From the NCBI GenBank assembly GCA_046329965.1, contig JAXLTR010000011.1:142418-206417 (forward strand): a stretch of 64,000 nucleotides of DNA, read 5' to 3'. Source of the DNA: Bacteroidales bacterium (lineage in GTDB: Bacteria; Bacteroidota; Bacteroidia; Bacteroidales; NBLH01). The position numbers were made by a program, and so were the translations under genes. Numbering within the stretch: the first letter of the stretch is position 1; each line of letters opens with the position of its first letter. Of this stretch, positions 3,058 through 46,365 are shown one piece after another. The notes below the pieces were generated by a model. That model ran no database searches. It was not told the DNA's origin and worked only from the letters and a program-made list of their open reading frames with translations.

Positions 3058-3068
3058 ATATAAAAAAA

Positions 3069-9149: not shown

Positions 9150-9484
9150 TTTCTTTTTCGTTTATTTGACAAAATTAATAAAAATTATCAAAATCACAAA
9201 AAGACCTTTTTGTCATTTATGTAATTATTATTTATTCATAAGCAATTCACAAGACTAGTTTCAATCAAATTGAAAATCAAATTAATGTTGTTTGTAAAGA
9301 GCTAGATGTAACTTTCTAAATATAATGTTGCACCAACCTGAAGTATTTATAGGAAAAATGCGCTAAGTAATAGGACTAACACAATCTGGCGCATTTATGA
9401 GATGTAAATGGGAGGCTTCATTTAATCCAGAATTTGATAAAATGAATGCGAAAAGCACAATGTTTTATGAAAAATATATCGATT

Positions 9485-15092: not shown

Positions 15093-15125
15093 GATAAATA
15101 GATAACATAAAATATCATATTCAAA

Positions 15126-16616: not shown

Positions 16617-16687
16617 GTAAAATTTAGCTACAACCTTTGTGTAGTATAACAATTAATTGATTTAAAAACCAATTTAATAAAAAAATA

Positions 16688-17284: not shown

Positions 17285-17366
17285 TTGGTCATTTGCGATG
17301 GTATATTTCTCAAAGAAAAAACTATAAAAGAATCTAATAAAATTTCAATAAAAAATAAAATTACCT

Positions 17367-19599: not shown

Positions 19600-19626
19600 G
19601 AAAATCTAACTTAACCTAATTATCAA

Positions 19627-27007: not shown

Positions 27008-27060
27008 AAATGAATAGTATAATTATACAATATATTTTTATTCTATATAAACTATTTTTT

Positions 27061-27789
27061 ATGAAAATTAAGTATTTAAATCTGATTTTTGCGTCTGTCG
27101 CATTTTCTATTATTTATAAATTAGATGTCAAAGCACAAACTAACAACCCTGAAATTTTTTCTGAAATAAAAAAAATTATTAAACAGGACAATCCGGCAAT
27201 TAACGAGCAATTTGATTATTATTTTTACGAAAAAAAGTTATTTGAAGAAGCATACACCAAATACAGTTCCATGTTTTTGGTTAATAACGAAGACAAAGGT
27301 AATGAATCTTATCAATCGATTGATCTTACTTCGGTTAAATCAATGAATTATAGCATTCCGCCGAATAAAGATTTTGTCTACATTATAAAGTTTCAAATAT
27401 CAAACGGTTCAAAATCAGAAGTAATAAAATTGTCGATTTTAGGAGATTATCCAAATCGCAAACATAAAGACGGATACTGCATGTATCATCTTGCCGATAA
27501 AAACGGAAATTTTTATTCTTTTATAACTGCAACAGACGTTAACAATCATCGTTACGAATATCCTGAAAATAACCCGATAAAATGTAATAAAAACGGTTGG
27601 ATTATTATAAACGTAGCTAAAATTGGCGATAAATTGTTTTTTATAGATTTATTGGAAGAAACGGTTTTACACACGGCATACCTGCCCGATGAACTAAAAA
27701 ACCGGACATTATCTTTCAGGCCGACATTTATGCTAAAACCGCGTACTCAGGTCCAAGTAGATTGGGTCGGAATTTGGGTTACAAAATAA
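27061..27789 (+). CDS. Exported hypothetical protein
   Basis: The ORF track starts at 27010. The ATG at 27061 gives the signal-like 'MKIKYLNLIFASVAFSIIYKLDVKAQ'. No domain was recognised. Confidence 0.45.
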   Translation: MKIKYLNLIFASVAFSIIYKLDVKAQTNNPEIFSEIKKIIKQDNPAINEQFDYYFYEKKLFEEAYTKYSSMFLVNNEDKGNESYQSIDLTSVKSMNYSIPPNKDFVYIIKFQISNGSKSEVIKLSILGDYPNRKHKDGYCMYHLADKNGNFYSFITATDVNNHRYEYPENNPIKCNKNGWIIINVAKIGDKLFFIDLLEETVLHTAYLPDELKNRTLSFRPTFMLKPRTQVQVDWVGIWVTK

Positions 27790-27840
27790 TCCGCTTACTA
27801 AAATTAAATATCAAATAAAAACCTTTTAAAACATTTTTCT

Positions 27841-29412: not shown

Positions 29413-29492
29413 TATGATTTCGGTTTATCATAAAAATCATACTAAAAACACTTTACAAGCAAAATCTATAAAATAAATTAAAATATAAACAA

Positions 29493-30083
29493 ATGAAAGC
29501 AATCTTCATTCTCATTCTTGTATTAGCAACGCCAAACTTAAACCTGTTTTCGCAATACAGCTATACAGAATACAAAAAGACCCGGCAAATTTACATTGAA
29601 AATTTTAAAAATAAAGGTGGTAAAGTAAGGATAGAAGCAGGAAATATTGAACCAAACAGGTATATTGAGAGTTTTGCCTTTCCGGAAAACATAAATTTTG
29701 AAATTGAAGGCGAATTGGAGAATATAAATGCTACGCAAAACAAGCATGGTATTGCCGGTATTTATTTTGGTTACTATGCCTTTTGCATCAACTCAAAAAG
29801 TGAGTTTTCAATTATGGTCGATGGTGAAGGGATATACAGTACTTTTAATTTTACACAATCCGACAAAATTAAAAAAGGCAAAAACAAACTTACTCTGCGG
29901 AGAATTAGCGATACGTATTATTTCTTCATCAATGAGACTTTTGTATACCAAACAAAAGATGTTTCGGTATTAGATATTCTGGAAGAAGGGGTGCTTGGTT
30001 TCCTGGCTATGCACAATACGAGTTTATATGCATATAAATTAGAGGTGAATCATATTGAAAGCATTTATTCTGCAACAAGGTAA
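29493..30083 (+). CDS. Exported hypothetical protein (possibly jelly-roll/LamG-like)
   Basis: 196 aa with a signal peptide. 'NKLTLRRISDTYYFFINETFVY' is reminiscent of concanavalin-like lectin folds. This assignment is weak. Confidence 0.4.
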   Translation: MKAIFILILVLATPNLNLFSQYSYTEYKKTRQIYIENFKNKGGKVRIEAGNIEPNRYIESFAFPENINFEIEGELENINATQNKHGIAGIYFGYYAFCINSKSEFSIMVDGEGIYSTFNFTQSDKIKKGKNKLTLRRISDTYYFFINETFVYQTKDVSVLDILEEGVLGFLAMHNTSLYAYKLEVNHIESIYSATR

Positions 30084-30129
30084 ACTATAAAATTGATGCA
30101 ATACAAACACAAATAAAAACAAATTTACA

Positions 30130-30588
30130 ATGATTGGACATTTTTATAGAATTTTTGTGATTTCTTTTCTATTATTATTTGCCGGATGCCATATCTTAGC
30201 TCCCAACACCACCTGCCATCGTTGCTCGTATTACAGCTTTGATGGAATTGCCGTCCATTTAGCCGATTACAACATTATGGCCAAAAAACAGGTTTCGGAA
30301 AATGAATTTTTAGGGAGGAAAACCATTTATTTGCAAAAAGATAAAACCTATACCATCTATTTTAAACAATGCGAACCTCCTGTCTATACCATTAAGTGTC
30401 AAATATTTGACATTCAGGAAAATACTGGTAAAGACCTTATGGTATTGGCCGGTTTTACCTGCAATAAACAAACAGAGGCATACACCACATTTAGGATTAG
30501 TGAAACGAAAGAATATGAAATACAGGTGCTTGCAAATAAAAAAGTGGATGTGAGAATTAACCTGGGCCTGGCCAATGAAAACAGATGA
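30130..30588 (+). CDS. Lipoprotein, hypothetical
   Basis: 152 aa. It has the lipobox-like 'LLLFAGC'. Confidence 0.45.
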   Translation: MIGHFYRIFVISFLLLFAGCHILAPNTTCHRCSYYSFDGIAVHLADYNIMAKKQVSENEFLGRKTIYLQKDKTYTIYFKQCEPPVYTIKCQIFDIQENTGKDLMVLAGFTCNKQTEAYTTFRISETKEYEIQVLANKKVDVRINLGLANENR

Positions 30589-30615
30589 GTGCTATATAAA
30601 TAAATATTGCTTATT

Positions 30616-33600
30616 ATGAGATTATTAGAAACCAACAATTTGGAAATTAAAAGATGTGTTATTCTACTTTTTTTAGTTTTTATAACTGCCTTAAGTGCCA
30701 GTGCCCAAATAACAGAAAATGAAAAATACCTGGTATCGAAAACATTAAACCTTAGTGAATTAATCCAGTTAGATGATGATTATTTTTTAGTAAAAAGCAT
30801 TAAGGAAAAAAAGTGGGGTGTATTTGAAATTTCGGTTGATGGAGAAAATTTCAATTATCACAAACCATTGCTTTCGTGCAAATATGATACAATTGAGGGT
30901 TGGTTCAATAACAATGAACCTTTTCTTACTTTGAAAAAGAATAATAAGTATGGAATGTTTCTTAATCCATTTGAACAGGAAGTAAGAGAAGCATCTATAA
31001 ATTTAGAATTCGATTCATTGATAAGTATCAGGAAAGATGATGGCTATTATGCTATTGCCAAGAAAAAGAACAGGTGGGGATATGTAGACTGGCAAAACAA
31101 CACCATGCAGGATTTTAATTACAATAGTAAAGGTGATATTTTAAAACAACTATTTTCTGACAATACAGGAAATGATATCCGGCTTGTTTTTCAACATCCT
31201 GAATTATTAAAACCTAACGAAGTGCTTTTTTCTGAAAATAAGCACTATATGGCCATTTCTGAAATAGATTTGGCTTACGGAAATATAGTTTATTCATTGT
31301 ATACCACAAATCCTCCTGCATTAATAAGCTCAAATAAAATTGAGCTGGAGGAAAATAAACCGGTAATCGAAGCCATAAGTAACGATGGAAAATACTTTAG
31401 GATAGGCTGTTATACAAAAAATAGGTTTATAGCTTTTTATGATGTCAATGCTGAAAAATTGATTTACGGTAACCCTGATAAAATTAAACTGGATGTTCAA
31501 TATTTGAGTTCACATGGTTGCATATCAGGAAATTACGAAATTGACTGGAGGAATAAAGAAACGCTTAGAATAGTCAACAACCTGACTAAGATTGTCAGAA
31601 ACCTTGATAATAAAATATATGGGTTGAAAGATTATAGTGGGCAACGTGTTCAAATTTCGCCCGATGGGCAATATTTGGGGATTTATGAAAATAAAGTGCT
31701 TAGGATATGGGATACTTATAAAAATGAAATTGTATGGACTTCGCCAAAACAAAGTTTTTTTACAGAATATACTGAATTTGCCTTATTAAGCAACAACATA
31801 GTGGCAAGTACAAAGGTGTTGGAAAATCAAAAGGACGCCCATTTGTATTGGTTCGATTTTATTAAGAAAAAGGTGTTATTTAGCACCAATTATCAGACTT
31901 TTAATTCAATTCACTTTGTTAGTCAGTTTAATCAGGATCTTTTAATAGCCAATATAGATTCCGGTAAGAATACAATTAATTCAATTTCAAAGATTAACCT
32001 GGCAAGTGGAGCATTCACTGCTACAAAACCGGTGAACACTGGTTTTAAAGAATATAATGGTTTGGTACAGTCCTTTCTCGATTCATTAAAAAAGGCACAC
32101 CCACAGCAATTTGATTATTACGAGAAAAACAGGCAAAGCTTTTTTAGTTGGTATGCCATGTATGCAAAATATTTTAATGAAAATGGAACCATTAAAGACA
32201 GTTCTCAAAAATGTCAACTCGATGTTTCATTTTTCGAACCGATTAAAACACATTGGCTACCAGTAAGATATGAAATAATCAATGCACTTGACAATAAGGC
32301 CTGTTACCAGGATATTTCGGATCAGATTGAATTTCTTGTTCATAAATCTGCCCTCAGAAAGGAGTTACTGTTTTGGAACGGTAATAAAGTTCCTGATGAA
32401 CGAAAAGTTACAATGCTTTATACAAAGAATGGGGCACCTTTCTTTTACACTCATGATGGATATTACTTTGGCAGTAAGGAAATTGCAGGTTTTTTAAGGT
32501 TTGCCCACAAAGGCAAATCCTATGCATTCGAGCAATTTGATTTAAAATTTAACCGGCCTGATATTATTTTAGACCGTTTGGGCTATGCCGATAGTTCAAT
32601 AATTAATTTTTACCGGAAAGCCTATTATAAGCGGCTTCAAAAATACGGTTTTGACCATAAAGATTTGAATAGCGATAGGCACACGCCTGAAGTGCATATT
32701 GCCAATGAAGATGATTTACTAAAAACATTTACCCAAAAAGAGTTGATAATTAGATTAGAAGCCTCAGACAGTATTTATAAGTTAAACCGTATAAATGTTT
32801 GGATAAACGATGTTCCTGTTTTTGGTGTCAACGGGATAGATATCAGTAAATTAAACAAGAATAACTACAAAGATGAAATAAGCATCCAACTAAGCCACGG
32901 CAGAAATAAAATTCAGGTATCGGCACACAACAACAATGCAATAGAAAGCCTGAAAGAAACATTTTATGTTGATTATCAGGAAAAAATCATCCAAAAGCCT
33001 GATTTATATTTTATAACTATTGGGATTTCGAAATACGTCAATCCCATGAATAACCTTGCCTATGCCGATAAAGATGCCAGGGATCTGGTCCAGATGTTCA
33101 AGGCCAGAAGCGACATTTATAAAAATATCAGGATAATACCCCTTCTCAATCACAATGCAACAAAAGCAGGGATATTGTCGCTTAAAGACTCGCTAATGAA
33201 CTCGAAAACCGAAGATCATGTAATTTTGTTTTATGCAGGCCACGGTACTATTGGCGACGATGGGCAGTATTATATTTGTAATACCGACATCAGAAATGAC
33301 AATATTGTTGAAAGTGCTTTGCCATATATGGACTTTGAGGCGATACTCGATGGTATACCTGCCCGGAACAAGCTTTTGCTTATAGATGCCTGTCATTCTG
33401 GAGAAGCGGATGATGAAGACATTAAAATTGCGGAAAACAGTCCGGAACTTGGAAATACAAAAGCCCTGAAATTAAATTATATCCCACGTAAAATTACTCA
33501 ATCAACAACATATAATTCGCACACAACATTTGATTTGATGAAATCTCTTTTTTCTGATTTGCGACGAAATACAGGGGCAACCATTATTGCCTCAGCAGGG

Positions 33601-33825
33601 GCCGGTGAATTTGCCTACGAAGGTGGGGATATATCAAACGGTGTTTTTACCTATTTCTTAATAGAAGCATTGAAAAGCAAACAGGCAGATTACAATAAGG
33701 ATAACATAATTACAGTTAGTGAACTCGTTGATTTTATTTCAATAAAAGTACAAGAACATACTTCAGGAAAACAGAACCCTGGCAGGCGAAGTGAAAACCT
33801 TACATTGGATTTTGAAATTTGGTAG
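30616..33825 (+). CDS. Exported multidomain protein: WG-containing repeats + propeller-like region + C-terminal caspase (peptidase C14) domain
   Basis: The track starts at the TTG at 30607, and the ATG at 30616 is preferred. It has the signal peptide 'CVILLFLVFITALSASAQ' and WG repeats ('KKWGVFE', 'NKYGMFLN', 'NRWGYVDW'). The caspase dyad is 'VILFYAGHGT' (His codon 33241-33243) and 'LLLIDACHSGEA' (Cys codon 33391-33393). Confidence 0.8.
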   Translation: MRLLETNNLEIKRCVILLFLVFITALSASAQITENEKYLVSKTLNLSELIQLDDDYFLVKSIKEKKWGVFEISVDGENFNYHKPLLSCKYDTIEGWFNNNEPFLTLKKNNKYGMFLNPFEQEVREASINLEFDSLISIRKDDGYYAIAKKKNRWGYVDWQNNTMQDFNYNSKGDILKQLFSDNTGNDIRLVFQHPELLKPNEVLFSENKHYMAISEIDLAYGNIVYSLYTTNPPALISSNKIELEENKPVIEAISNDGKYFRIGCYTKNRFIAFYDVNAEKLIYGNPDKIKLDVQYLSSHGCISGNYEIDWRNKETLRIVNNLTKIVRNLDNKIYGLKDYSGQRVQISPDGQYLGIYENKVLRIWDTYKNEIVWTSPKQSFFTEYTEFALLSNNIVASTKVLENQKDAHLYWFDFIKKKVLFSTNYQTFNSIHFVSQFNQDLLIANIDSGKNTINSISKINLASGAFTATKPVNTGFKEYNGLVQSFLDSLKKAHPQQFDYYEKNRQSFFSWYAMYAKYFNENGTIKDSSQKCQLDVSFFEPIKTHWLPVRYEIINALDNKACYQDISDQIEFLVHKSALRKELLFWNGNKVPDERKVTMLYTKNGAPFFYTHDGYYFGSKEIAGFLRFAHKGKSYAFEQFDLKFNRPDIILDRLGYADSSIINFYRKAYYKRLQKYGFDHKDLNSDRHTPEVHIANEDDLLKTFTQKELIIRLEASDSIYKLNRINVWINDVPVFGVNGIDISKLNKNNYKDEISIQLSHGRNKIQVSAHNNNAIESLKETFYVDYQEKIIQKPDLYFITIGISKYVNPMNNLAYADKDARDLVQMFKARSDIYKNIRIIPLLNHNATKAGILSLKDSLMNSKTEDHVILFYAGHGTIGDDGQYYICNTDIRNDNIVESALPYMDFEAILDGIPARNKLLLIDACHSGEADDEDIKIAENSPELGNTKALKLNYIPRKITQSTTYNSHTTFDLMKSLFSDLRRNTGATIIASAGAGEFAYEGGDISNGVFTYFLIEALKSKQADYNKDNIITVSELVDFISIKVQEHTSGKQNPGRRSENLTLDFEIW

Positions 33826-33975
33826 TATGGTTTCAAAATATTCGAAATTCAAGATTATAAAGGCAAAGTGCGGATAAAATCAGGCTATTGAAAATTGAAA
33901 AGCCTAATTTTTGAGTACTTTTATACAATTAAATTTTTCGACTTTTCCAGGAAAATAATAAATCAGAAAACTCTT

Positions 33976-34749
33976 ATGGAAATAGTAATAATTTGTTTGG
34001 CTGCTTTTTTCACTGCCGTTCTCACCTTCTTTTCAGGCTTTGGGCTGGGAACGATTTTAGCTCCCGTTTTCGCGATATTTTTCCCAATTGATATTGCTAT
34101 CGCACTCACAGGCGTAGTGCATTTCTCGAACAATCTTTTCAAGATTGCATTAGTCGGAAAAAATACCGATAAAGCTGTTTTACTCCGTTTTGGGATACCT
34201 GCAATTCTAGCCTCGTTTGCCGGGGCCTGGTTGTTACTAAAAATCACCGTATTACCAACGCTTCTTCAATACGAACTTTGGGGTAAAGAATTTGAAATTA
34301 CACCTGTGAAACTAATCATTGCATTACTATTAATGGTGTTTTCAATACTCGAAATATCTCCTTCATTCCAAAAAGTTCAGTTTAGTAAAGACAAATTAGT
34401 ACTGGGAGGTATTCTAAGCGGGTTCTTTGGTGGCTTATCGGGCATTCAGGGAGCAATACGCAGTGCATTTCTAATAAAAAGCGGGCTATCCAAAGAAGCG
34501 TATATTGGAACAGGAGTAATAATTGCCTGTTTGGTTGATTTTACAAGACTTTCGGTTTATGCTTCACATTTTACCTCGGCAAACCTGCACGAAAACCTTA
34601 CACTATTAATTTCGGCAACACTTGCCGCAATAGCAGGTGCTTACTATGGGAAAAGTGTGCTTAAAAAAGTAACCTTACGGAGCATTCAACTCATAGTAGC
34701 AGTAATGCTTATTCTTATTTCTTTGGCATTGGGTATCGGTTTAATATAA
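33976..34749 (+). CDS. TauE/SafE (TSUP) family anion permease
   Basis: The track starts at the TTG at 33895. The ATG at 33976 gives 'MEIVIICLAAFFTAVLTFFSGFGLGTIL', the typical TSUP start. The protein is polytopic and Gly-rich. Confidence 0.78.
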   Translation: MEIVIICLAAFFTAVLTFFSGFGLGTILAPVFAIFFPIDIAIALTGVVHFSNNLFKIALVGKNTDKAVLLRFGIPAILASFAGAWLLLKITVLPTLLQYELWGKEFEITPVKLIIALLLMVFSILEISPSFQKVQFSKDKLVLGGILSGFFGGLSGIQGAIRSAFLIKSGLSKEAYIGTGVIIACLVDFTRLSVYASHFTSANLHENLTLLISATLAAIAGAYYGKSVLKKVTLRSIQLIVAVMLILISLALGIGLI

Positions 34750-34781
34750 AAAACAACAGCTGTAAAACAATTAATAATTTA

Positions 34782-34889
34782 TTTTCGCCTATTATTGGTT
34801 CGTCCAATGATTATAAGTCCTTTGTTCCCCGTTTTATTGTTGGGTTAGTGTTTGTGTCTGAAGGGATTCAGAAATTTCTTTTTCCCTGA
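34782..34889 (+). pseudogene. Stub of a DoxX-family membrane protein gene (N-terminal helix only, no start codon, premature TGA)
   Basis: The translation '...YKSFVPRFIVGLVFVSEGIQKFLFP*' matches my memory of the first TM segment of DoxX proteins ('GLVFLSEGIQKFLFP'). The frame ends at the TGA at 34887-34889 with nothing DoxX-like downstream. Confidence 0.45.
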
Positions 34890-35016
34890 TTCGACGTATC
34901 TGTGTTCCAATTTTTGTTTGAAGCTGCGTTAGGAATTAATCAGCTTAAAAATTCATTTAATTTTCTACTATTAAATCATAAATATTACTTTAGCAGTCTA
35001 TTGACAAACAATTCAT

Positions 35017-37782
35017 ATGGCAGTCCAGGCAAATTTTACCGAAGAAAAAAATAAACTAAAGCAATACTTGAAAAGTGATAGTAATGAAGATGCAAAACGT
35101 CCTTTAATATATCCTCTCTTTCATAAATTGTATAAGGATAAATTCAAAATTGAATCGGATGCACATGGTGCCGATGTTTATATCGAAGGCCAAATAATTG
35201 TTGAATGTAAAACATCATACGCCGACTGGCTTGATGGTTTTTATCAGGCACTGCATTACCACAAAAAACATGGGCTGGTTTATTCCATTGTAATGGTTAT
35301 TGCCGAAAAATTTGTAGGTATTTGGCGTGTAAACCAATTAACCGAATATGCTGTTCTATTATCGCACACGGCCGATGCCAACAAAGCCCCAAATGTAATC
35401 GGTAAAGAAAATGCACGAAAAACAACCCAGGCCAATAAAAAACAAATACAGGAATCTGCAATCTATTGGCTCGAGCCCAAAGATCTTTCAGGTGATTTTT
35501 TCAAAGGTGAAGGAAAAAGTATTGACTATGAATTGCATGAAATACTAAACATCCTTAAAAATCCTGCTATCGAAAGGTTACAGATGAACACCCGCAACTT
35601 TATCGAACATATTGAACTCCTTAAAAAATTCTTCGACAATCCGCTCGATGCTGTCCATTGTTTCTATTCCATTGTGGCTTATTGGGATATCACATCGGTT
35701 GTTTCAACAAATGAATATTCCGATAAAATACGGATTGTAGGCTTTAAAGGACAAAAGCACAGCGACGAAGTAAGCATTAAACCATCTTTGTTCAAGAACT
35801 TTAAAAAGTTTGTCGAAAGCCGCTTTATATTTACCAACGAAGGTTCGGGGCTTACAGTCGATTATTATTTTAGCCGTTTCGATGAAGTAATGGCCCGTAT
35901 TGATCCGGAATATGTAAAACAGCATGGTATTTTCTTCACCGATATCAACCTGAGTAAATTTGCCCTTTGGTTTGCCAAAGACAAAATGAGCGAACAATTA
36001 GATGAACGTTACGTTTGGTTCGACCCTGCCGGCGGTTCGGGCAACCTGATTTCGAGCTGGAGGGGAAAACTGAAACATAAAATCATTTCAGAATTACAAC
36101 CCGATTTGTTGCGGATTATCGAGCGCCGTATGCGTATTGATCCGTGGCATGTCGAAACAGGGTTTACCATTATCCCTAAAACATCCGAAAATAAAGGGCT
36201 TAATTTTCTCGATTGTGGGGCAAAGGAATATGTTACTGAATTGGAAAAAGAGCTGAAACTCAAAAACCTTTTTATTGACAAACCGCTGGCATTTCTTTTG
36301 AATCCGCCTTATAAAAATACCGACGAAAACGAAACCGTACGCGAAAGTGCCGATTCAAATTACCGGATAAACAAAGATATACTCAAAATTACAGGCGAAG
36401 ATGCAGGCAAGGAACGTTACCTGGCATTTCTTGGGCAAATACTGAATATTGCAAAATACCAAAACGAACAAAACCCTGATTTTGAACCTTTGGTTTTGAT
36501 TTTTACACCTACATCGTGGTTAATTCCACGCCCTACTTACGTTAATTTCCGCATAATATGGGATACCCATTTCGAATATACCGATGGATTTATAATCACC
36601 AGCAACGAGTTTTTTAAATTACAGGGAAAATGGCCGCTTGCTTTTACCATATGGCGCTATAAACCAGATGAAAAAAGGGAAAATCACGTAAAAGCTTATG
36701 ATTTTACCAGTATTAAGCACGATGATTTAAATATCAATTGGAGTTTAGGAGACGAAGAGTTGAAGCTTTTAATTAACAATATCTTAAAAAATCAACAAAT
36801 AATTAAACTGGATAATTCAAGAGGTGAAATAAAGGAATCTCTTCCAGCTATCTTGCACAGAAATGGCAAGTATATTCGTCAAACAAGATTTGATTTTAGT
36901 CATGCAAAAAAGAATGAGGATGATAAAACAATAATAAGTGGATTTCCTTTGAATGATAAAACTAGACATTTCGAATTAAGCCGTGTTTGTGGAAATTTAA
37001 ATGGCGAATTTATTGGTTTTATGGACGATAATACACCTGTAAGATTAAAACAAGAATCATTAAGTCGGTTAACAAATAAACCAGATAGAATTTGGTTTAG
37101 ATTAGATAATGATTTTAAAGGTACCAATAAATCAAAAATATTTAATGGACCTTCCGATAATCGAGGATATTGTGCTTATGATATTGAATCGAGCAAGGCC
37201 ACTTTTTCATGGTTTGTAATTACTAAAGCATTAAATGGTATTTACCCAATTTGGGCAAACCAATTTGATATCTGGATTCCAGATATCAAACCGGAACAAG
37301 AAAAATACTGGCATTCCCTATGTTTTGCATTTGTTTTGGCCGAAAACCGCTGTGTAGTGACCAAATTTGAGAAAGACAATCCGGTACAAGGTGCACCCGA
37401 AGTATTTGTTGATAATCCTTTGTGCCCGGCCAACCCTGATGCATTTTGGGCAACAACGCTCGATAAAGAAGTTTTAAAAGAACACGGATTGGCTTTTGCC
37501 CTTGTAAACAAAATAAAAGAACTTTACAAAACATGGAATGTAAATTATTGCAAAGGTCAGTATTTACAAAACGTTGGCCTTGAAAATGAACCCTATTTCA
37601 AGTATTTCGATTATGATGATTTCCTTACCCCTTATTCGGGTTTAATCCAAATCCGCAAATATGCCGAAATCAATTCCTGTTCCGATTTATTGGATTTATT
37701 TACAGAAATACAGGCTTTAACCAAAAAAGTAAAAGAAGAAATTTACAGGCTTCTGGTGGTTGAATTTAAGTATTTTGAATAG
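35017..37782 (+). CDS. Single-polypeptide PD-(D/E)xK nuclease + gamma-class N6-adenine DNA methyltransferase fusion (Type IIG/IIL, MmeI-like architecture)
   Basis: 921 aa. The N-terminus 'GADVYIEGQIIVECKTS...FYQALHY' gives D53...E63-x-K65 (35173-35211). Motif X-like is 'HGIFFTDINLSKFALWF', motif I is 'WFDPAGGSGNL' (36016-36048) and motif IV is 'NPPY' (36301-36312). About 450 aa at the C-terminus are unassigned (a TRD candidate). No partner genes are present. Confidence 0.7.
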   Translation: MAVQANFTEEKNKLKQYLKSDSNEDAKRPLIYPLFHKLYKDKFKIESDAHGADVYIEGQIIVECKTSYADWLDGFYQALHYHKKHGLVYSIVMVIAEKFVGIWRVNQLTEYAVLLSHTADANKAPNVIGKENARKTTQANKKQIQESAIYWLEPKDLSGDFFKGEGKSIDYELHEILNILKNPAIERLQMNTRNFIEHIELLKKFFDNPLDAVHCFYSIVAYWDITSVVSTNEYSDKIRIVGFKGQKHSDEVSIKPSLFKNFKKFVESRFIFTNEGSGLTVDYYFSRFDEVMARIDPEYVKQHGIFFTDINLSKFALWFAKDKMSEQLDERYVWFDPAGGSGNLISSWRGKLKHKIISELQPDLLRIIERRMRIDPWHVETGFTIIPKTSENKGLNFLDCGAKEYVTELEKELKLKNLFIDKPLAFLLNPPYKNTDENETVRESADSNYRINKDILKITGEDAGKERYLAFLGQILNIAKYQNEQNPDFEPLVLIFTPTSWLIPRPTYVNFRIIWDTHFEYTDGFIITSNEFFKLQGKWPLAFTIWRYKPDEKRENHVKAYDFTSIKHDDLNINWSLGDEELKLLINNILKNQQIIKLDNSRGEIKESLPAILHRNGKYIRQTRFDFSHAKKNEDDKTIISGFPLNDKTRHFELSRVCGNLNGEFIGFMDDNTPVRLKQESLSRLTNKPDRIWFRLDNDFKGTNKSKIFNGPSDNRGYCAYDIESSKATFSWFVITKALNGIYPIWANQFDIWIPDIKPEQEKYWHSLCFAFVLAENRCVVTKFEKDNPVQGAPEVFVDNPLCPANPDAFWATTLDKEVLKEHGLAFALVNKIKELYKTWNVNYCKGQYLQNVGLENEPYFKYFDYDDFLTPYSGLIQIRKYAEINSCSDLLDLFTEIQALTKKVKEEIYRLLVVEFKYFE

Positions 37783-37798
37783 CTGGAATTTAGAAGCC

Positions 37799-37861
37799 CT
37801 CAAAGGTTGGTCACTGATTCGGACACTGAGCTTGTCGAAGTGACCGAAGTGAACCTTTGAG
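37799..37861. repeat. Long imperfect hairpin between convergent genes, carrying a GAGCTTGTCGAAG loop motif
   Basis: CTCAAAGGTTGGTCAC (37799-37814) pairs with GTGACC (37840-37845) and AACCTTTGAG (37852-37861). The loop contains CTGAGCTTGTCGAAG. There is no T-run, so it is REP-like rather than a classic terminator. Confidence 0.65.
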
Positions 37862-37873
37862 AGCTGTTTATCA

Positions 37874-39484
37874 TTATTTTGCTTCAACCGGAAGCAAATC
37901 TTTCGTATTTAAATTTGATTTGGTAAAAATTCCCAATACGCCTTTAAAACCTACTGTCATAACAATATTTATGAAAAACGCCAGAAATGAAAGGAGTAGT
38001 AATGAACCTGCAAGTGCAGCCAATATCATATACAAATCAAACTCACCGTTGTGATATACTGTTCTGCGCAACATTCCCTTTAATCCGGCCATTCCCATAA
38101 AAGCACCCATTCCGATACCTCCGATCAAATGTGCCCAGAAATGGAAATTGGCCAATTTCTGGCTGTAAAGTTTTGCACCATTGGTTAAAATTGGCAGCAA
38201 CAAATAAATGGCTGAATACAAGGTCATAGTTAATCCTACCAAGATAGCTACATGTACATGTGGTCCAACAATCCATTGGGTGTTATGTAAGATGCGGTTC
38301 AAGCCCAAATCGGCCTGCATAATGCCAGCTGGTACTGCCAGGGCAAAGCCCAATAAACCACCCAGTAAAAACTGGAGCGGGTTGCTCATTTTTAGTGGCC
38401 GGGCCTGCCATAAGGTAGCTAAGGTAATAAAAAAGGCCAGTCCCTGGGTGATTAGTTCAAAAGCAGTAAGCATTTCACCGGAGAATATTTTCAAAAATCC
38501 GGGTTGTGCCTGATCCGACATTAAGTGGTGTGACCAAACAAACCATGAAACAATCATTTCGACCAGTAAAGCTATTCTTGCCCACTTTTCCATGAAAATT
38601 TTCTTTCCGGTAATCAGGCTTGCAAGAAGGTACCAGGTACCGGCAACAAAAATCAAAACCAATCCGTCAGCAATCAGGTCAAGTCCCCACCAGAACCAAT
38701 TTTTATATAGCAAGGCATCAATGGCCGAATGTTTCAGATCTGTGCCAAACAAAGCGGCTATCATGTATACCAGTATTAATACGCCTGTAAATGTAATGAT
38801 ACCGGCGTTTAACAAAGTATCTACCGTACCCCGGGCTATAGCTGCCACAGGTGTTGAAACATAATAAGTTCCATCGGCATTTTTCAATCGTTTAAATCCC
38901 AATGCTGAAATAAGCACTCCTTTGGGTTGTTTTTCATGTCCTTCGGGGTTGTAGCTGATGGTTTTAAAGATATTGAACACCCAAAGGAGTGTTCCTACCA
39001 TTACAAGTGCAATTCCCAAAATAAAGAATGTTCCGCCCAACACGCTGAATTGTGTGAAATCGGCAGGTAGCGGCCAGTATAAGGTGTACAGAGGTGAATA
39101 ATGCGATAGGAATCCGGCAAACCAGAATGTGAAAGTACCAATGGCAATCAGCCACAAGGTATAATTGGCCAGTTTAAAACTCCACAAGGGTTTCTTCATT
39201 AAAAAGGGCACCAAAAAAAGGAAAGCGCCAAATACAATAGAATAGGAAGAACCGAAAATCCCAACCAACGGGTGGGCAGTCATAATGGCAAAGTATTGTT
39301 TGTCATCCATCATTACTCCTGGTGTTACCAGATGCATCCGCATAATTAAACCTTCCAGAACAGCAAAAAGATAATAAACCAAGCCTACCACCACAAAGCG
39401 GAGGGTCAGTTTTTGCATGGGTGTTAAGGATTTTACATTGAATAATCCCTGTTCACCATTTATAAATGTATTGATAAAACTCAT
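37874..39484 (-). CDS. Haem-copper-oxidase superfamily subunit I with NO-reductase-like active-site substitutions
   Basis: 536 aa with about 12-13 TM helices. The haem His ligands are retained ('MTAHPLVG' H71; 'GPHVHVA' H409/H411), as is the HH pair ('WSHHLM' H319/H320). The helix-VI motif reads 'FWWGLDLIADG' (38663-38698), where oxidases have 'WW.GHP.VY' and cNOR has 'WW..HLWVEG'. Confidence 0.85.
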   Translation of the reverse strand: MSFINTFINGEQGLFNVKSLTPMQKLTLRFVVVGLVYYLFAVLEGLIMRMHLVTPGVMMDDKQYFAIMTAHPLVGIFGSSYSIVFGAFLFLVPFLMKKPLWSFKLANYTLWLIAIGTFTFWFAGFLSHYSPLYTLYWPLPADFTQFSVLGGTFFILGIALVMVGTLLWVFNIFKTISYNPEGHEKQPKGVLISALGFKRLKNADGTYYVSTPVAAIARGTVDTLLNAGIITFTGVLILVYMIAALFGTDLKHSAIDALLYKNWFWWGLDLIADGLVLIFVAGTWYLLASLITGKKIFMEKWARIALLVEMIVSWFVWSHHLMSDQAQPGFLKIFSGEMLTAFELITQGLAFFITLATLWQARPLKMSNPLQFLLGGLLGFALAVPAGIMQADLGLNRILHNTQWIVGPHVHVAILVGLTMTLYSAIYLLLPILTNGAKLYSQKLANFHFWAHLIGGIGMGAFMGMAGLKGMLRRTVYHNGEFDLYMILAALAGSLLLLSFLAFFINIVMTVGFKGVLGIFTKSNLNTKDLLPVEAK

Positions 39485-39508
39485 AGTAAAATGTATTTAA
39501 TGAATAAA

Positions 39509-40054
39509 TTAATAAACTATCACAACATCCTTTACCACCATATTGTAACCTTTCCAGCCTGAATATTCGGTGGAGCGAATGGTGAGTACTTCAGGCTTTT
39601 CGAATTTCCAGAGTACATCGTTGATGTGTCCGGGTAATACCTGCATCTGAAACAGCATGGAATTGTCCTGCCTGAAAAGTCCGAAACCATAAGTCAAATC
39701 ATCGGAAGTTACCCTGAAACTAACCAGTTCATTACTTTTGATTTTCAAAGTGTCGGCAGGCAAAATAAACTGATGATCTTTGATGCTGATGTCGAAAACC
39801 TTATCCGCTTTCATTTCGCTGCGATTAAGGTCAATGGGTTTCCACGGTATAGTTTCGTGGGTAACAATGTGTAAACTTACGCCAAGAACTACCAGAAAAC
39901 TTACAAAGGAATAAAAGAGGGTGGGTTTTACCGCACTTTCTTTCCCAGTTCTTGTGATCTGGTAACCAAACCAGGCCATAAGAAGCAGAATAACAACGAC
40001 ATAGAAGGTATATGCCAGAGTTTGTCCATTTAAAACAACTTGTGAATCTACCAT
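39509..40054 (-). CDS. Subunit II-like cupredoxin protein with degenerate CuA site
   Basis: 181 aa with two N-terminal TM helices and a beta-rich domain. 'STEYSGWKGYNM' (39539-39574) aligns position-for-position with the CuA loop C-x-E-x-C-G-x-x-H-x-x-M, with both Cys changed to Ser and His to Gly. The upstream 'DDLTYGF' sits where 'DV.HSF' is expected. Confidence 0.65.
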   Translation of the reverse strand: MVDSQVVLNGQTLAYTFYVVVILLLMAWFGYQITRTGKESAVKPTLFYSFVSFLVVLGVSLHIVTHETIPWKPIDLNRSEMKADKVFDISIKDHQFILPADTLKIKSNELVSFRVTSDDLTYGFGLFRQDNSMLFQMQVLPGHINDVLWKFEKPEVLTIRSTEYSGWKGYNMVVKDVVIVY

Positions 40055-40084
40055 TTTAATTGATTTTTAGTGAATATTTGACTT

Positions 40085-40504
40085 TTATAAAATTGAATTT
40101 TGGTTTATAGTATTTTTTAAATCTGCTAGTTTTGTTGAACTCAGTACTTCATTGATATTTTCCTGAATTGCTGTCCATTTATCATGCATTACACATTTTT
40201 CAGAAAGTGCGCAGTTTCCATAACCAAAAAAGCAATTGTTACTAATAATATTGTCACCTGTTGCCTCAATAATATTTAATAGCGTTAATTGGCCAATATT
40301 TTTTAAAATTTTATAACCTCCATCTTTACCCTGCACACTCTTTAATAATTCATTTTTTGTCATTAATGTTAGCTGCTTACGCAAATATCTGAATGGAATT
40401 TTAAGATTTTCATAGAGTTCATTGGCACTATATAATTTGTTTTCATCAGCTGACATAAAACCGAGTATTTGAAGCGCGTATTCTGTAGTTTTGCTGAAAT
40501 TCAT
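40085..40504 (-). CDS. Rrf2-family regulator (Fe-S type), first gene of the oxidase/NOR-like operon
   Basis: 139 aa. 'TEYALQILGFM' gives the wHTH. 'CFFGYGNCALSEKCVMH' gives C-x6-C-x5-C-x2-H. It ends 30 nt upstream of the subunit II gene. Confidence 0.85.
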   Translation of the reverse strand: MNFSKTTEYALQILGFMSADENKLYSANELYENLKIPFRYLRKQLTLMTKNELLKSVQGKDGGYKILKNIGQLTLLNIIEATGDNIISNNCFFGYGNCALSEKCVMHDKWTAIQENINEVLSSTKLADLKNTINQNSIL

Positions 40505-40519
40505 ATATGATACCTTTTG

Positions 40520-40548
40520 GTAGTATTTAATTATAAAAGTAGTATTTA
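40520..40548. promoter_or_regulatory. Direct repeat GTAGTATTTA x2 (19-bp period) just upstream of the Rrf2 gene start
   Basis: The copies lie at 40520-40529 and 40539-40548, and the gene start is at 40504 (minus strand). This is a candidate operator or promoter element based on position only. Confidence 0.25.
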
Positions 40549-42213
40549 TTTTATTGAAAAGGAAAATTATTTTGAATCTTTTACAAAAGCAAGCAAAATT
40601 TCATTGTAGTTTCCATTTAGTTATTATTCCATCCCTTCGATTTTAAAGCACGAAACCAACTATCAATAAATGATTACCGCTATTGAATTATAAAGAATTG
40701 AGCCAGATATGCAAAATATTCAAATTATAATAATTGTCCAGGAGTAGACACTCAATCTGTATTTATCAACATTCAAACAATAAAATCAACTTTCCCACTG
40801 TGGTGGAAATATTTACTGCAAATCTGGTAAACTTCATTTTACAACTGTTTTATTGCACATATTTTCAACAAAGTGGCTCTTGATGCAATAAATCAAATAT
40901 CTATTGTAGCTATTGTTTGTGGGCGAAACAATCAATCCGCAAAGATAGGCCCGGTCGCAACTTTTCTCATAGCCAGCCCCGATTTTTTTCGGGGAGCGAT
41001 AGCGAATAAACGCAGCAAAAGCTTCCAGCATAAACATTCTTTTCCTTAACTATTCCCGTCTTTGGTCCCTGAGCTTGCCGAAGGGCCTTTTGCACTTATT
41101 GCTCCCTAACACTATATAAATGAAGCATATTACCCTTCAAATATAAAATAATAGAGTTTAAATTAGGGAAATCCCGATTTAGTGAAGCTTATATTGGATA
41201 ATCAATGTTTAGCTGAACTTAATCGGGATTAATTGTTTATATGTTTCATTTTTAAATCTTTCGTTATGGATAAAACTGGTGCATATTTCAGGTTATAGGC
41301 TCAGGCTCGTTATCATCGTTCGCTTTTTAGTTATTATGGTTGCAGGCAGTGTTTTCATTCAGCGCTTCGTTGTTTGCGTTTGGCTTCTTTGGTTCGTTCA
41401 GGTTTTCATAGGGGGCTTTTATAGTTCCCTTGGTTGTTGAGCGCAGTCGAAACATGGACATTGTAGTCGAAATGTTATTAAAGAAAATAGTAACTGTGAT
41501 ACCTTATAACCATGAAACCCTGCAATTTTGAAACCATGGGCATTGAAACCGGAACCACGCTAAGACATACAATTATCACCAGGCACTTTCCCTGCCCCCG
41601 GAAAAAACACTTTGCTGGCGCAAAACTCATTTTTTCCGTGTTCAGGTAAAAAGCCTTATATCTTTGCATTTTGAATCAGCTGTACAATACACATCCGGCA
41701 CATTAAAATTTTACAACTATAAATCCCAAAATCAGTAGACGTAAAATTTTAATAAGCCGGTAAAGAAACTCTGCAAAGGAATAGCTCCCTGGCGATTAAA
41801 AACCTCACATATTAAGCGGTATTCTTTTTTGCCACTGGTAGCCTGGCCTGATTCGGTCTAGGTAAAGAATCTACTTTCTTCGATCTAACTTTATTGGTTC
41901 TGATTCTTCTGTGCTAGGCCAGTCTCCCAGCTTGGGTTTATAAGGTATCCCATCCGGCAGGCTTGTCAAAAAATGCCGCCAGCACAACCAAGCCCCTTTT
42001 TATATCATCCTGATTTTTCTTTTTTGGCATAAAAAGGAGCTTAGTTGCCCTTCGGGTGGCATCTGTAACATGGTCATTGAGCGGAGTCGAAATGCCATGC
42101 TGTCATCATTTTTGAGCTTCACCTGCCGTCTGGTCTGTGCTGCTACTCTTGTCTGGCTGCACTATTCCGTAAACTCCATAAAGCAGCCAGCCAACCGCAG
42201 CACTTTGTTTTGT

Positions 42214-42443
42214 AGCGGGCCCTGCGAGGGTTGCCAGGCGTTTTTCAGTCGGTTATTTTATTCATTCTGATTTGATTTTTAAAGGTAAAATAACCGCCTA
42301 AAAAACTCCAGAGTTGCGTCCGGTCGCCATTTCGTTCCTACATGGACGCCCAGCCACTAAGCTCCAGCATCTTCAAAAGCAGCTCGTACCTCACTTCTCG
42401 CATTTTTTTGCAAGGCTGGCAACCCTACCCGCAGCGGGCCCGC
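42214..42443. repeat. Imperfect GC-rich inverted repeat pair (about 27-30 nt arms) enclosing about 170 bp, with an internal 11-bp perfect hairpin
   Basis: The left arm is AGCGGGCCCTGCGAGGGTTGCCAGGCG (42214-42240). The reverse complement of 42414-42443 is GCGGGCCCGCTGCGGGTAGGGTTGCCAGCC. The inner hairpin is CGGTTATTTTA (42250-42260) with TAAAATAACCG (42286-42296). Confidence 0.6.
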
Positions 42444-42885
42444 GCTCTCGTCGACAGTGCCGTTCTTTGATTTCCATCCGCCGTTCTCGTATCAGGAAAA
42501 AATCTATACCCACCCACCACCCTTTTAAATCAGGGCTTATATTATTAATATTCAACCTAATAAACACTTTATTTAATAAATAAATACCTTAAAATAAAAG
42601 GTTTAGTTCTGAGCAATTTTATAAAGATGTCCTGCATCTTTATATCTTTATTTACCAGCGAATAAAGATTAATATAATCTGATTTTCCACTTTATTCCTT
42701 AAAAATCCTTCAAGAGAGAGGAACTTTGTTTAGCACCCCTGCCAGTATCATTGACTTAACAACTATCCTCAATTTCTTTTATTGTAGATAGCCATTTAAA
42801 TCAAAAAGAAATAAAAAAGGCAGCAACTAAGAATGGCGTTCTCGCTGCCTCCTTATTAGAAAAATTAAAAAAAAGGCAGCAAAGT

Positions 42886-43056
42886 TAAATCAGCCAGATT
42901 AAGAAAAATCAAGGCCAGCTTTATAAATTTTCATTTTTCTATTGTCTATCAGCAAAATTTATAAAGCTGCCAGTGGTTTTAAAAATAAAGTTTGGCTATG
43001 CCCTTTTGATTAAACTTTTTTTTTAAAAGCCTTGCTTTTTCTGCCTGGCTGATTTA
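42886..43056. repeat. Nested palindromes (outer 12 bp, inner 16 bp perfect)
   Basis: The outer arms are TAAATCAGCCAG (42886-42897) and CTGGCTGATTTA (43045-43056). The inner arms are CAGCTTTATAAATTTT (42916-42931) and AAAATTTATAAAGCTG (42954-42969). Confidence 0.7.
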
Positions 43057-43165
43057 TTTGAAAGGCTTTCTTTTTTTCCTTTTTTTCTTTTGGTTTAATA
43101 GGTTTTTGATGTGCGAGCAAAGCGAAGCAATTCAGAGCGATGCTTCAAACTTTAAAACTCGTACT

Positions 43166-43591
43166 ATGAATCAATTCAGTATCAAAACATCAACCATCAA
43201 ACAAGAAATAAGCAACCCTCATTTCTATGTTTTAAACAAAGGTCTAAACTCCGGTAAACCATTACAGGTTCCCTGTCCCAATTGCTTTATAATTCAGAGT
43301 GAAAACGAATAATTTAAAGAAATACTATATTGGATTTCTTTTTCATTATGGAGAGCAAAAGCTTTTCATCCATATTTGCGAGGCTCAGTTATTCCATTTA
43401 TTTGTATTAGAGATTACAAACAACTAATAGTTGAAAAAATCGAAGTCGTAAAAGCAAATCCGGTAAAGTTTGCCGAAACCATCAAGCAACTAAGCTTTAT
43501 TGAAATGAAGGAGAAACAACTAAAAGAAAACATAAGTCTAATCCAGGAGCTAAAAAGGGCTTATGTTTACAGCTATTTTAATAAAAAATGA
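43166..43591 (+). pseudogene. Gene interrupted by a single in-frame TAA (possible HsdS-TRD-like small protein)
   Basis: The ATG at 43166 gives 'MNQFSIKTSTIKQEISNPHFYVLNKGLNSGKPLQVPCPNCFIIQSENE', then TAA (43310-43312). The same frame continues open with 'FKEILYWISFSLWRAKAFHPYLRGSVIPFICIRDYKQLI...KEKQLKENISLIQELKRA' to 43591. The two track ORFs (43058.. and 43376..) share this frame. Confidence 0.55.
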
Positions 43592-43602
43592 TGAGGTAAA
43601 GT

Positions 43603-43642
43603 CAAAAAAAATGCCCGAAAGCATTCGCTCCGGGCATTTTTA
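43603..43642. terminator. Bidirectional intrinsic terminator
   Basis: An A8 run, the stem ATGCCCG (43611-43617) with CGGGCAT (43631-43637), then a T-run. It lies between convergent genes ending at 43591 (+) and 43659 (-). Confidence 0.7.
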
Positions 43643-43658
43643 ATATCAAAACCAAAAA

Positions 43659-43877
43659 TCAATTTCCATCCACAGCGACCTGGCTAATAGTGGTCATTAC
43701 TGCACCTGCAACTGTTAAGTATCCAGCAACTGAAACCAAAATTGCAGGCATAGCTGGAGCCGCAATAATTGCGCCACCAGCCGCCGCCAGGCATAAACCA
43801 ACAGCCCTAAAAATTCTGAATATTCTGGGAGTTGGAGATTTTAGTCGCCTTATTAAAGATAATCTTTCATTTGCCAT
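43659..43877 (-). CDS. Small two-TM Gly/Ala-rich membrane protein
   Basis: 72 aa. A basic N-terminus 'LIRRLKSPTPRIFRIFR' is followed by 'AVGLCLAAAGGAIIAAPAMPAILVSVAGYLTVAGAVMTTI'. It overlaps the upstream gene by 11 nt. Confidence 0.5.
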   Translation of the reverse strand: MANERLSLIRRLKSPTPRIFRIFRAVGLCLAAAGGAIIAAPAMPAILVSVAGYLTVAGAVMTTISQVAVDGN

Positions 43878-44118
43878 CTTTCAATCCTTTAAAAATGAAT
43901 GTTTCAATGTGAATAAGCCTTTTTTCAAGAAATTCAATTTTCTGGTTCATCAATTCATTGATTCCTTTGAATTCAGTCTTAATTAAAGAAGTGGTTGTTT
44001 TCACTTCTGCCAGGTCCTTTTCCACACGTTTAAAATCGCTGTGCAATTGCTTGGTGAAAAATGCCACCATCGAAAGCAGCACCGAAATTATTATCCCAAA
44101 TAGTTGAAATTCGTTCAT
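43867..44118 (-). CDS. Small N-terminally anchored coiled-coil protein
   Basis: 83 aa. A TM segment 'LFGIIISVLLSMVAFF' is followed by a heptad-like 'DLAEVKTTTSLIKTEFKGINELMNQKIEFLEKRL'. The gap to the upstream gene is 3 nt. Confidence 0.5.
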   Translation of the reverse strand: MNEFQLFGIIISVLLSMVAFFTKQLHSDFKRVEKDLAEVKTTTSLIKTEFKGINELMNQKIEFLEKRLIHIETFIFKGLKDGK

Positions 44119-44121
44119 AAC

Positions 44122-45268: not shown

Positions 45269-45509
45269 CAGGCAAATAAATATTATTGCTAGCCTGATTT
45301 TTATTCCCCAAACTAATATTTTTTGAGTTCTTTTGCTTACCTTTGTACTATCAAAGTTCTTTTAAACACAGGGCTCAACACCTAATAAATTAGTACAAAT
45401 TGTATGTACCCTATTAGGTGCCCCAGATTGAAACCGATTATGTAAATAATTGATAATAAGGATTTAAGAGTAAGAGGGTGTCGTCTTTTCACCCCGACAA
45501 ACAAAAATG

Positions 45510-45535
45510 ACCACGTTTAACAGACGTGGTTTTTT
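45510..45535 (+). terminator. Intrinsic-terminator-like hairpin inside repeat unit A
   Basis: ACCACGT (45510-45516), loop TTAACAG, ACGTGGT (45524-45530), then TTTTT. Confidence 0.55.
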
Positions 45536-45686
45536 AATTTATTGAAGCGTCAGCCTGAAAAGGATGTAAGCGAAAGAAAAGTAAAAAACAAGGGCGATAG
45601 CCCGGGCATTTTTGTTTGTTAAAACTTCCCCAAAGTTCGCGAGCCCGTCAGGGCGAGCAATCTTACTACCCCGACAAACAAAAATG

Positions 45687-45712
45687 ACCACGTTTAACAG
45701 ACGTGGTTTTTT
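45687..45712 (+). terminator. Identical terminator-like hairpin inside repeat unit B
   Basis: The sequence is the same as 45510-45535, shifted by 177 bp. Confidence 0.55.
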
Positions 45713-46365
45713 AATTTATTGAAGCGTCAGCCTGAAAAGGATGTAAGCGAAAGAAAAGTAAAAAACAAGGGCGATAGCCCGGGCATTTTTGTTTGTTAAA
45801 ACTTTTCCAAAGTTCGCGAGCCCGGCAGTGCGGGCAATCGTACTACCTCAACAAAGCAAAAATATGGTTACGAGCCATCTTTTTTTGTTTATGCTCATTC
45901 AAGTAGTAATTTGAAAGTCGCAGGTTCAGACTTTTTTCACAGCCAGCCCCGATATTCAATCAGGGACCGAAAGGAGTAATCTTTTTAATCCCACAATTAG
46001 AAGTGTTAAATAATTGAAGAAGAAATCAATTCATTTTTATTTTGTAAGATTTCCATTTTTTCTGTGGACTCTCCTTATTATAAAGCTCAAAGAAAATTTT
46101 TGTTTTCAACTTTTCAAGGCAATTAGCACAAATTTTTAAATTAAACTTGACTTAAATTGTCTGAAATTCGTTTTTGATTTATCAAATGGCGATTTTTTTT
46201 TGGAAATCAAAAGTAAAATTTTAACGCAATAAACTATCTGTCAGTATTAGTTCGATTGACGGAATTTAAAGTCTTACTTTTAAAATAGACAAGTTAATTG
46301 TTCAGATTTTTTAGCAACAAAATAAAATTCTTTAAAAATTCTTTATTTATTTTCTTTTTATAAAC

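Follow-up and report, generated by a model that had tools for sequence, protein, structure and literature searches.

What does an enzyme of the haem-copper oxidase (HCO) superfamily do once one of its three CuB/FeB histidines has been exchanged for aspartate? This question is raised by a locus in a 64,000-nucleotide stretch of DNA from a Bacteroidales bacterium (contig JAXLTR010000011.1, positions 142,418 to 206,417; the whole stretch is termed the window, and coordinates below count from its first letter). Three consecutive minus-strand open reading frames (ORFs), separated by intergenic gaps of 30 and 24 nt, encode an Rrf2-family regulator, subunit II and subunit I of such an enzyme. An earlier, sequence-only reading of the window had described them as an operon, and both the ORF coordinates and all the residues it had quoted agree with the sequence. 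Our analysis indicates that the three-gene operon very probably encodes a member of the gNOR family, because each of the sequence features by which that family is defined was found here. The cassette comprises the following elements:

40507-40526, minus strand: predicted operator, an imperfect 8-4-8 palindrome (ATGATACCTTTTGGTAGTAT on the plus strand) that ends 2 nt ahead of the Rrf2 start codon.
40085-40504, minus strand: Rrf2-family regulator of 139 aa (Pfam PF02082, 3e-27) with the Cys3-His motif C91, C98, C104, H107.
39509-40054, minus strand: subunit II of 181 aa, in which two transmembrane helices at the N-terminus are followed by a cupredoxin domain lacking the CuA ligands.
37874-39484, minus strand: subunit I of 536 aa, the probable gNOR-type catalytic subunit (Pfam COX1, 1.6e-61), with haem His H71, H409 and H411 and active-site residues D269, D273, H319 and H320.
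37785-37872, minus strand: hairpin, probably a terminator, directly 3' of the subunit I stop codon and between convergent genes.

gNOR is the only HCO family in which an active-site His is replaced by Asp (Murali et al., PNAS 2024, PMC11214002)—in agreement with the definition that the sequence-only reading had tentatively given—and its second subunit is a cupredoxin missing the CuA residues, with quinol as a possible electron donor (PMC11214002). The family is known from Bacteria and Archaea, mainly in sulfidic settings, and there has been no biochemical characterisation to date (PMC11214002). The residue at its Tyr position is Asp (Table A4 of PMC8756737, modified from Hemp & Gennis 2008), and Sulfurimonas, Sulfurovum and Persephonella are named as hosts (PMC8756737). 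Candidatus Methylomirabilis also has a gNOR, and these first-named hosts are far from the present Bacteroidales/Ignavibacteria lineage. The name gNOR reportedly goes back to 2008, to work by Hemp & Gennis and by Sievert et al. The earlier proposal of a candidate uncharacterised nitric oxide (NO) reductase family is therefore right in that the family is uncharacterised and NOR-like, but the family itself had already been named in 2008 and surveyed in 2024.

The features that carry the assignment are spread over both subunits. Subunit I belongs to the HCO superfamily and has the low-spin and the high-spin haem His, D269 stands for one of the three CuB/FeB His, D273 occupies the Tyr position with no Tyr migrated elsewhere, and the partner is a cupredoxin subunit in which four of the five CuA ligands have been replaced. 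The likeness to gNOR extends to the lack of a cytochrome c domain, the occurrence in Bacteria and Archaea, and the association with sulfidic sites.

Turning to the catalytic subunit, H71, the H319/H320 pair and H409/H411 are all present, and the segment FWWGLDLIADG (residues 264-274) carries D269 and D273. The AlphaFold2 model of subunit I (pLDDT 88.7, pTM 0.89) was matched by Foldseek to subunit I of aa3 and bo3 oxidases with a TM of about 0.8. When aligned by MAFFT with distant full-length oxidase-type relatives, WWGLDLIAD falls over WFFGHPVVY; a mixed-family profile compared with solved A-family oxidases pairs D269 with the CuB His and D273 with the cross-linked Tyr; and a profile of the Asp family only, run against Thermus thermophilus ba3, sets fwwGldliadG over FWWTGHPIAYF, with D269 at H233 and D273 at Y237—the same register as the ba3 motif FWW(T)G..P/L.I..Y/D. 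The ba3 chain in this last alignment (4g7r) has Ala where we take the wild type to have Val, and appears to be a ba3 variant. A point against this placement comes from one gapped HMMER alignment to plant COX1 (7jro), which shifts by four residues and puts D273 onto the His; we judge that register less likely, given that the ungapped one recurs in three other alignments. D269 and D273 lie one helical turn apart, and either register turns both to the same face. As judged from these alignments, D269 is at the position of the helix-VI metal-ligand His and D273 at that of the cross-linked Tyr, the ungapped register being the better supported, just as the sequence-only reading had placed them.

The active-site residues are strictly conserved. 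Among 324 homologues, 204 of them close and 120 distant, no exception was found to D269, D273, H71, H319, H320, H409 or H411, and the signature YKNxxWWGLD[LM][IV]ADG / VWSHHL / HNTQW holds without change from Bacteroidales to Thermoprotei; after the second Asp, the Bacteroidales/Ignavibacteria lineage reads ADGL, as opposed to ADGD/N. We also considered whether another His might supply the third CuB ligand, an outcome that the sequence-only reading had counted against its own proposal. None is both family-specific and conserved: H252 is conserved in only 67%, and H400 and H448 are (nearly) invariant across the mixed HCO alignment. No Tyr was found to have migrated to helix VII, where an invariant Ser (Ser313) occupies position -6 from H319; this is, we assume, the register of the migrated Tyr in C-family enzymes.

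Subunit II has no Pfam match and matches the NCBIfam CoxB model TIGR02866 weakly (6.7e-5). A profile built from 32 orthologues matches the CuA domain of Thermus ba3 (2cua, 1ehk_B) at an E-value of about 1e-5, and in this alignment the ba3 CuA ligands H114, C149, C153 and H157 correspond to Y122, S161, S165 and G169, with M160 kept as M172. The remnant of the CuA loop is STEYSGWKGYNM (residues 161-172), and the ba3 alignment bears out the earlier description of it as a ghost in which both Cys and both His positions have been replaced. The AlphaFold2 model of the subunit (pLDDT 87) contains helices at residues 4-34 and 44-68 and a beta-sandwich domain at 85-180; Foldseek matched it best to ba3 subunit II and 2cua (root-mean-square deviation of 2.6 Å over 101 columns), and next to subunits II of other oxidases, among them CyoA of bo3, which lacks CuA. 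Subunit II is a membrane-anchored cupredoxin unable to bind CuA, with two predicted transmembrane helices as compared with one in ba3 subunit II.

Among characterised systems, Thermus ba3 (1EHK, 2CUA) is one of the closest solved relatives of subunit I and the closest for subunit II. The cNOR and qNOR enzymes (for example, Pseudomonas aeruginosa NorBC) resemble subunit I in having no Tyr and a carboxylate four residues past the helix-VI ligand, and the predicted chemistry is the same; in the cNOR motif HLWVEG, the Glu ligates FeB. Their FeB site of three His plus Glu differs from the present one, however, the helix-VI His being Asp here, and in place of a cupredoxin partner they have a cytochrome c subunit or an N-terminal quinol domain fused to the enzyme. 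E. coli bo3 (CyoAB) likewise has a CuA-less cupredoxin subunit II, and its quinol donor serves as the model for the proposed quinol use of gNOR; unlike the gNOR-type site, bo3 keeps a full CuB site with Tyr and reduces O2.

To place the window copy among its relatives, sequence libraries and genomes were searched. A scan of one genome per GTDB species gave 505 loci encoding a relative; the family is common, with about 500 species-level genomes that are mostly Bacteroidales and Ignavibacteria, plus Chloroflexota and archaea. The closest locus is in a Bacteroidales metagenome-assembled genome (MAG) with 95% identity, several loci are from MAGs of sulfidic caves, and subunit I is 74-95% identical across Bacteroidales and Ignavibacteria. 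The first search returned more than 3,381 matches; identity is 78-91% for the best 120, and those that bear a name belong for the most part to MAGs of Ignavibacteria/Melioribacteraceae and Bacteroidota. In a library clustered at 50% identity, a wide gap sets the family off: its only full-length representatives are at 71% and 45%, and the next full-length proteins, outside the family, are at 31% or below. A search seeded with the 45%-identity lineage reached Chloroflexota, Actinobacteria, Thermoprotei and Methanomethylicia, with Methylomirabilis absent from its named matches; Sulfurimonas and Persephonella were likewise missing among the matches that carried names. According to their genome papers, the type strains of Ignavibacterium album and Melioribacter roseus apparently lack a gNOR, so the MAG names of the relatives are loose.

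The sequence-only reading had also raised the prospect that the family might cluster inside the O2 reductases. In a neighbour-joining tree—a crude one, with no bootstrap and no labelled references—the family with both Asp residues is monophyletic and stands apart from all GHPxVY sequences, adjoining two other Tyr-less sequences, which speaks against that prospect. Beside the gNOR clade, a 462-aa HCO relative from a Logan assembly (P0231) groups with an H...N (sNOR-like) sequence; it has Arg at the helix-VI His (IWVALRFYLQG) and HWQHL in place of the His-His pair, and its active site may be even more aberrant. In short, the gNOR family, its defining residues and its CuA-less cupredoxin are already known, and the window copy is a typical, ordinary member that leaves knowledge of the family unchanged. 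What the present analysis adds is the linkage to rrf2, the IscR-like ligand set of the regulator, the operator motif, and the abundance of the family in Bacteroidales and Ignavibacteria.

Neighbourhood counts were drawn from 80 related loci. Subunit II lies immediately upstream of subunit I in 77 of these. In 64 loci the available sequence is long enough to look further, and 46 of them have an Rrf2 gene in the same orientation immediately upstream. The survey of Murali et al. 2024 (PMC11214002) leaves this linkage unmentioned, with 0 occurrences of 'rrf2' or 'nsrr'. The regulator of the window scores 94.8 bits on the Rrf2 model TIGR00738 (cut-off 73.3), besides its Pfam match, and has the C-x6-C-x5-C-x2-H motif reported earlier (C91, C98, C104 and H107). 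Cassette-linked regulators are 33-59% identical to the window copy, and all four residues are invariant in 48 of 48. In a phmmer alignment to IscR (4hf0), they fall on C92, C98, C104 and H107, respectively. Position 8, which we take to be that of the Asp ligand in Streptomyces NsrR, is variable among the cassette-linked orthologues. The regulator shares with NsrR and IscR the winged-helix Rrf2 fold, the C-terminal Cys cluster and, by prediction, a palindromic operator overlapping the promoter, and NsrR adjoins an NO-metabolism gene, as is predicted here. Streptomyces NsrR uses three Cys plus Asp8, whereas the regulator here has Cys3-His as in IscR; judged by these residues, its ligand set resembles IscR more than NsrR, even though the gene is linked to the HCO operon and not to isc genes. 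The earlier label of an NsrR-like iron-sulfur (Fe-S) repressor is therefore apt for the Rrf2 fold and the three invariant Cys, but not for the NsrR affiliation, given the Cys3-His set and a score of 26.6 bits on the NsrR model NF008240 against a cut-off of 182. In some loci without an Rrf2 gene (L036 2357-2815, L043 4864-5328, L050 4871-5347, and also L014), subunit II is preceded by a membrane protein of 154 aa that matches COX1 weakly, often together with DUF6448 and a Crp/Fnr regulator, which suggests that these loci carry an alternative regulatory or accessory module.

The operator was recognised by comparison of the regulator's upstream regions. Its consensus, ATGATACC-N4-GGTATCAT, forms an 8-4-8 palindrome that ends 2-3 nt ahead of the regulator start codon and, to our knowledge, matches no published NsrR or IscR motif. 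With up to three mismatches allowed, 21 of 48 rrf2 upstream regions contain it; for other upstream regions the figure is 3 of 750, and for shuffles 3 of 960. Related loci totalling 900 kb hold 27 such sites, 25 of which precede the cassette rrf2 or, in three loci, subunit II, and in the 64-kb window no site but 40507-40526 has three or fewer mismatches. In L012 (5362-5381), L026 (5366-5385) and L020 (5372-5391), the palindrome is situated between the Rrf2 gene and subunit II and not ahead of the regulator, at a distance of 28 nt from the subunit II start in L012 and L026. A TAnnTTTG-like element precedes the palindrome in many loci; if this is, as we presume, the Bacteroidetes -7 promoter box, the palindrome would overlap the transcription start. 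A scan for sigma-70 promoters, which does not cover Bacteroidetes-type promoters, gave no signal above shuffles. The conserved palindrome is good comparative evidence for a dedicated, probably autoregulated repressor; it is silent on the signal.

At the other end of the cassette, the hairpin after subunit I has a folding energy of -34.3 kcal/mol and a z-score of -6.8 against shuffles, and is probably a terminator. The G+C content of the cassette region is slightly above that of its flanks (0.41 vs 0.35-0.36). A 20-nt motif, CTTCGRCAAGCTCAGNGNCC, occurs at 37821-37840 and 41064-41083, both on the minus strand, bracketing the three genes; two copies compare with 0.02 expected by chance, and the flanks of the two copies show no further alignment beyond the 20 nt.

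Drawing these lines together, a full mechanism can be proposed that we consider fairly likely as a whole. The binuclear site would pair the high-spin haem with a non-haem metal, for which Fe is the likeliest candidate. H319, H320 and D269 would hold this metal, with D273—at the position of the FeB-ligating Glu of cNOR—acting as a fourth ligand or a proton relay. At this site, two NO would be reduced to nitrous oxide (N2O). Electrons would most likely come directly from menaquinol, because there is neither CuA nor a cytochrome c domain. The Rrf2 protein would bind an Fe-S cluster through C91, C98, C104 and H107 and, sitting on the palindrome at 40507-40526 that would overlap the promoter/start region, would repress its own operon until damage to the cluster released it from the DNA, with NO as the most plausible signal. 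The enzyme would then serve to remove NO arising from nitrate or nitrite respiration, rather than act as a fixed step of a complete denitrification cluster, and the removal role fits better because the cassette moves among unrelated genomic contexts. Of this scheme, the analysis shows the replaced residues, the folds, the layout of the operon and the conservation of the operator, while substrate, metal, donor and signal are inferred; the assignment of NO reduction draws on the gNOR literature and on the analogy with cNOR and qNOR. For the earlier claim of a NOR-like HCO with a 2-His/2-carboxylate site and a dead CuA, this means that the sequence features agree with gNOR, but that NO reduction is a prediction for the family. 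Several predicted NO reductase families, gNOR among them, could be the source of a considerable part of the N2O produced in the environment. The abundance of the family, and its compact regulator-plus-enzyme cassette with a recognisable operator, offer handles for expression studies and for the choice of a test organism.

Several points weigh against this reading. Membership in gNOR was assigned by defining features and not by clustering with reference gNOR sequences (DAMO_1118, Sulfurimonas) or by a curated hidden Markov model. A 2019 preprint attributes to gNOR a His-to-Glu change of a haem ligand, which is absent here, all three haem His being invariant; the claim is not repeated in PMC11214002. 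No gNOR has been purified, so that what the enzyme reduces, whether it holds Fe or Cu and where its electrons come from are all predictions. As for the regulator, it falls below the NCBIfam cut-offs of IscR (TIGR02010, 68.3 bits vs 207.55), RirA, the SUF regulator and NsrR, and its lowest score is on NsrR. No conserved neighbourhood extends beyond the three genes, a Pfam census of 150 flanking genes showing no dominant family. Finally, no nitrite reductase (nirK, nirS) was seen among the scanned window ORFs of at least 100 aa.

Among the alternatives, the one that survives best leaves the enzyme as proposed and changes the signal: the Rrf2 protein would sense Fe-S status, iron, redox state or O2, as IscR, RirA and RsrR do. 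We regard this as possible but doubtful. The IscR-type Cys3-His ligand set speaks for it, as do the variable position 8 and the higher scores of the SUF regulator, IscR and RirA models relative to NsrR, all of them below cut-off; moreover, the NsrR model gives a higher score, 39.9 bits, to a second Rrf2 protein encoded in the window (8733-9149). Yet the predicted site is confined to the gNOR operon, which implies a dedicated local sensor rather than a global Fe-S regulator, and Rrf2 genes also stand beside clade II nos clusters in the same phylum group. The Fe-S clusters of Rrf2 proteins, besides, generally react with NO. Two further readings, which we assessed jointly and rate as unlikely, go beyond this. 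One is an undescribed Rrf2 NO-sensor lineage of Bacteroidota and Ignavibacteriota, with Cys3-His and an operator of its own, that evolved independently of NsrR; the other is a gNOR 2-His/2-Asp site with a metal or a chemistry other than FeB-type NO reduction—which may be, for example, sulfide-tolerant NO reduction or a different reaction of an N- or S-oxide.

A related alternative, for which we see little room, holds that the 2-His/2-Asp haem site acts on some other small molecule, with NO reduction at most a side activity; candidates are N2O reduction, NO dismutation, turnover of nitrite or hydroxylamine, peroxide, and sulfur species. It gains from the fact that the family is without biochemistry, that NO dismutation or N2O reduction has been proposed for other HCO families without the Tyr, and that gNOR is enriched in sulfidic habitats (PMC11214002). 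Sulfur-transport genes neighbour 6 of the 80 loci, and the context is not tied to nir genes. However, all characterised Tyr-less HCOs with a carboxylate or amide at the D273 position are NORs, and the informative neighbours of the cassette are NO-stress or nos genes: hemerythrin, DUF438/PAS_10-hemerythrin, ScdA/RIC or nosDFYL genes lie nearby in 18 of the 80 loci.

That the enzyme is a divergent B-type quinol oxidase, still reducing O2 with a carboxylate-ligated CuB, appears highly improbable. In its favour, Thermus ba3 subunit I is among the closest solved relatives when the pure-family profile is used (a match at about 1e-14, with plant COX1 slightly better), ba3 provides all the best solved relatives of subunit II, and a CuA-less subunit II also occurs in the bo3 quinol oxidase. 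Against these similarities stand the replacement of the cross-linked Tyr by D273, the invariant Ser at the helix-VII position in place of a migrated Tyr, the loss of one of three CuB His, and the separation from GHPxVY sequences in the neighbour-joining tree; known O2-reducing HCOs all keep the CuB His and the Tyr (PMC11214002). Lastly, a degenerate, non-catalytic oxidase relic—suggested by the loss of canonical CuB and CuA ligands—is barely credible beside intact ORFs throughout, a dedicated regulator in the operon, the 74-95% identity of subunit I across Bacteroidales and Ignavibacteria, and haem ligands and Asp pair that are invariant in more than 300 sequences, archaeal ones included.

The genomic surroundings bear on the preferred reading of NO removal in several ways. 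In the window, narG (1447.6 bits, cut-off 1084), narH, narJ, narI and two major facilitator superfamily transporters (narK) lie at 11481-20970, and a Crp/Fnr regulator and a cytochrome c are also encoded. Such a set would suit a nitrate-respiring organism that has to rid itself of NO; between the gNOR operon and the nar operon, the link is one of proximity only. In one related locus, narH-like DNA lies about 2 kb away, and the DNA similarity between the window and its closest loci is limited to subunits I and II. The second Rrf2 gene heads a minus-strand cluster at 4002-9149 that adjoins a Crp/Fnr regulator and contains hemerythrin, PepSY_TM, cupin, DUF438-hemerythrin-PAS_10 and DUF1858/DUF2249 genes; gene families of the 4002-10258 region also adjoin gNOR in other genomes. 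A 400-aa hemerythrin-PAS_10 protein at 23474-24676, a paralogue of the one at 4524-5771, is encoded downstream of the nar/narK genes.

Further features of the window were recorded away from these clusters. A run of large, unusual genes occupies 25298-37782 and encodes a WD40 protein, a MORN/AhpC protein, a 1072-aa caspase-domain protein, a TauE exporter and a 921-aa ORF that has no Pfam or NCBIfam match and contains an NPPY motif as in N6-adenine methyltransferases; this region may be a variable or defence-like island adjoining the cassette. At 821-3425, an ArsR-rhodanese regulator, a class-V aminotransferase (cysteine desulfurase-like) and two DsrE/TusD-like proteins form a small sulfur-transfer cluster. 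The approximately 3.6 kb upstream of the operon (40505-44121) contain no ORF of at least 100 aa, no tRNA and no Rfam match; hairpins are numerous there, their arms measuring about 19-27 nt and their loops about 16-25 nt, for instance at 41581-41656, 41695-41760, 42237-42309 and 42905-42980. Beyond this region, a 177-nt tandem duplication spans 45484-45837.

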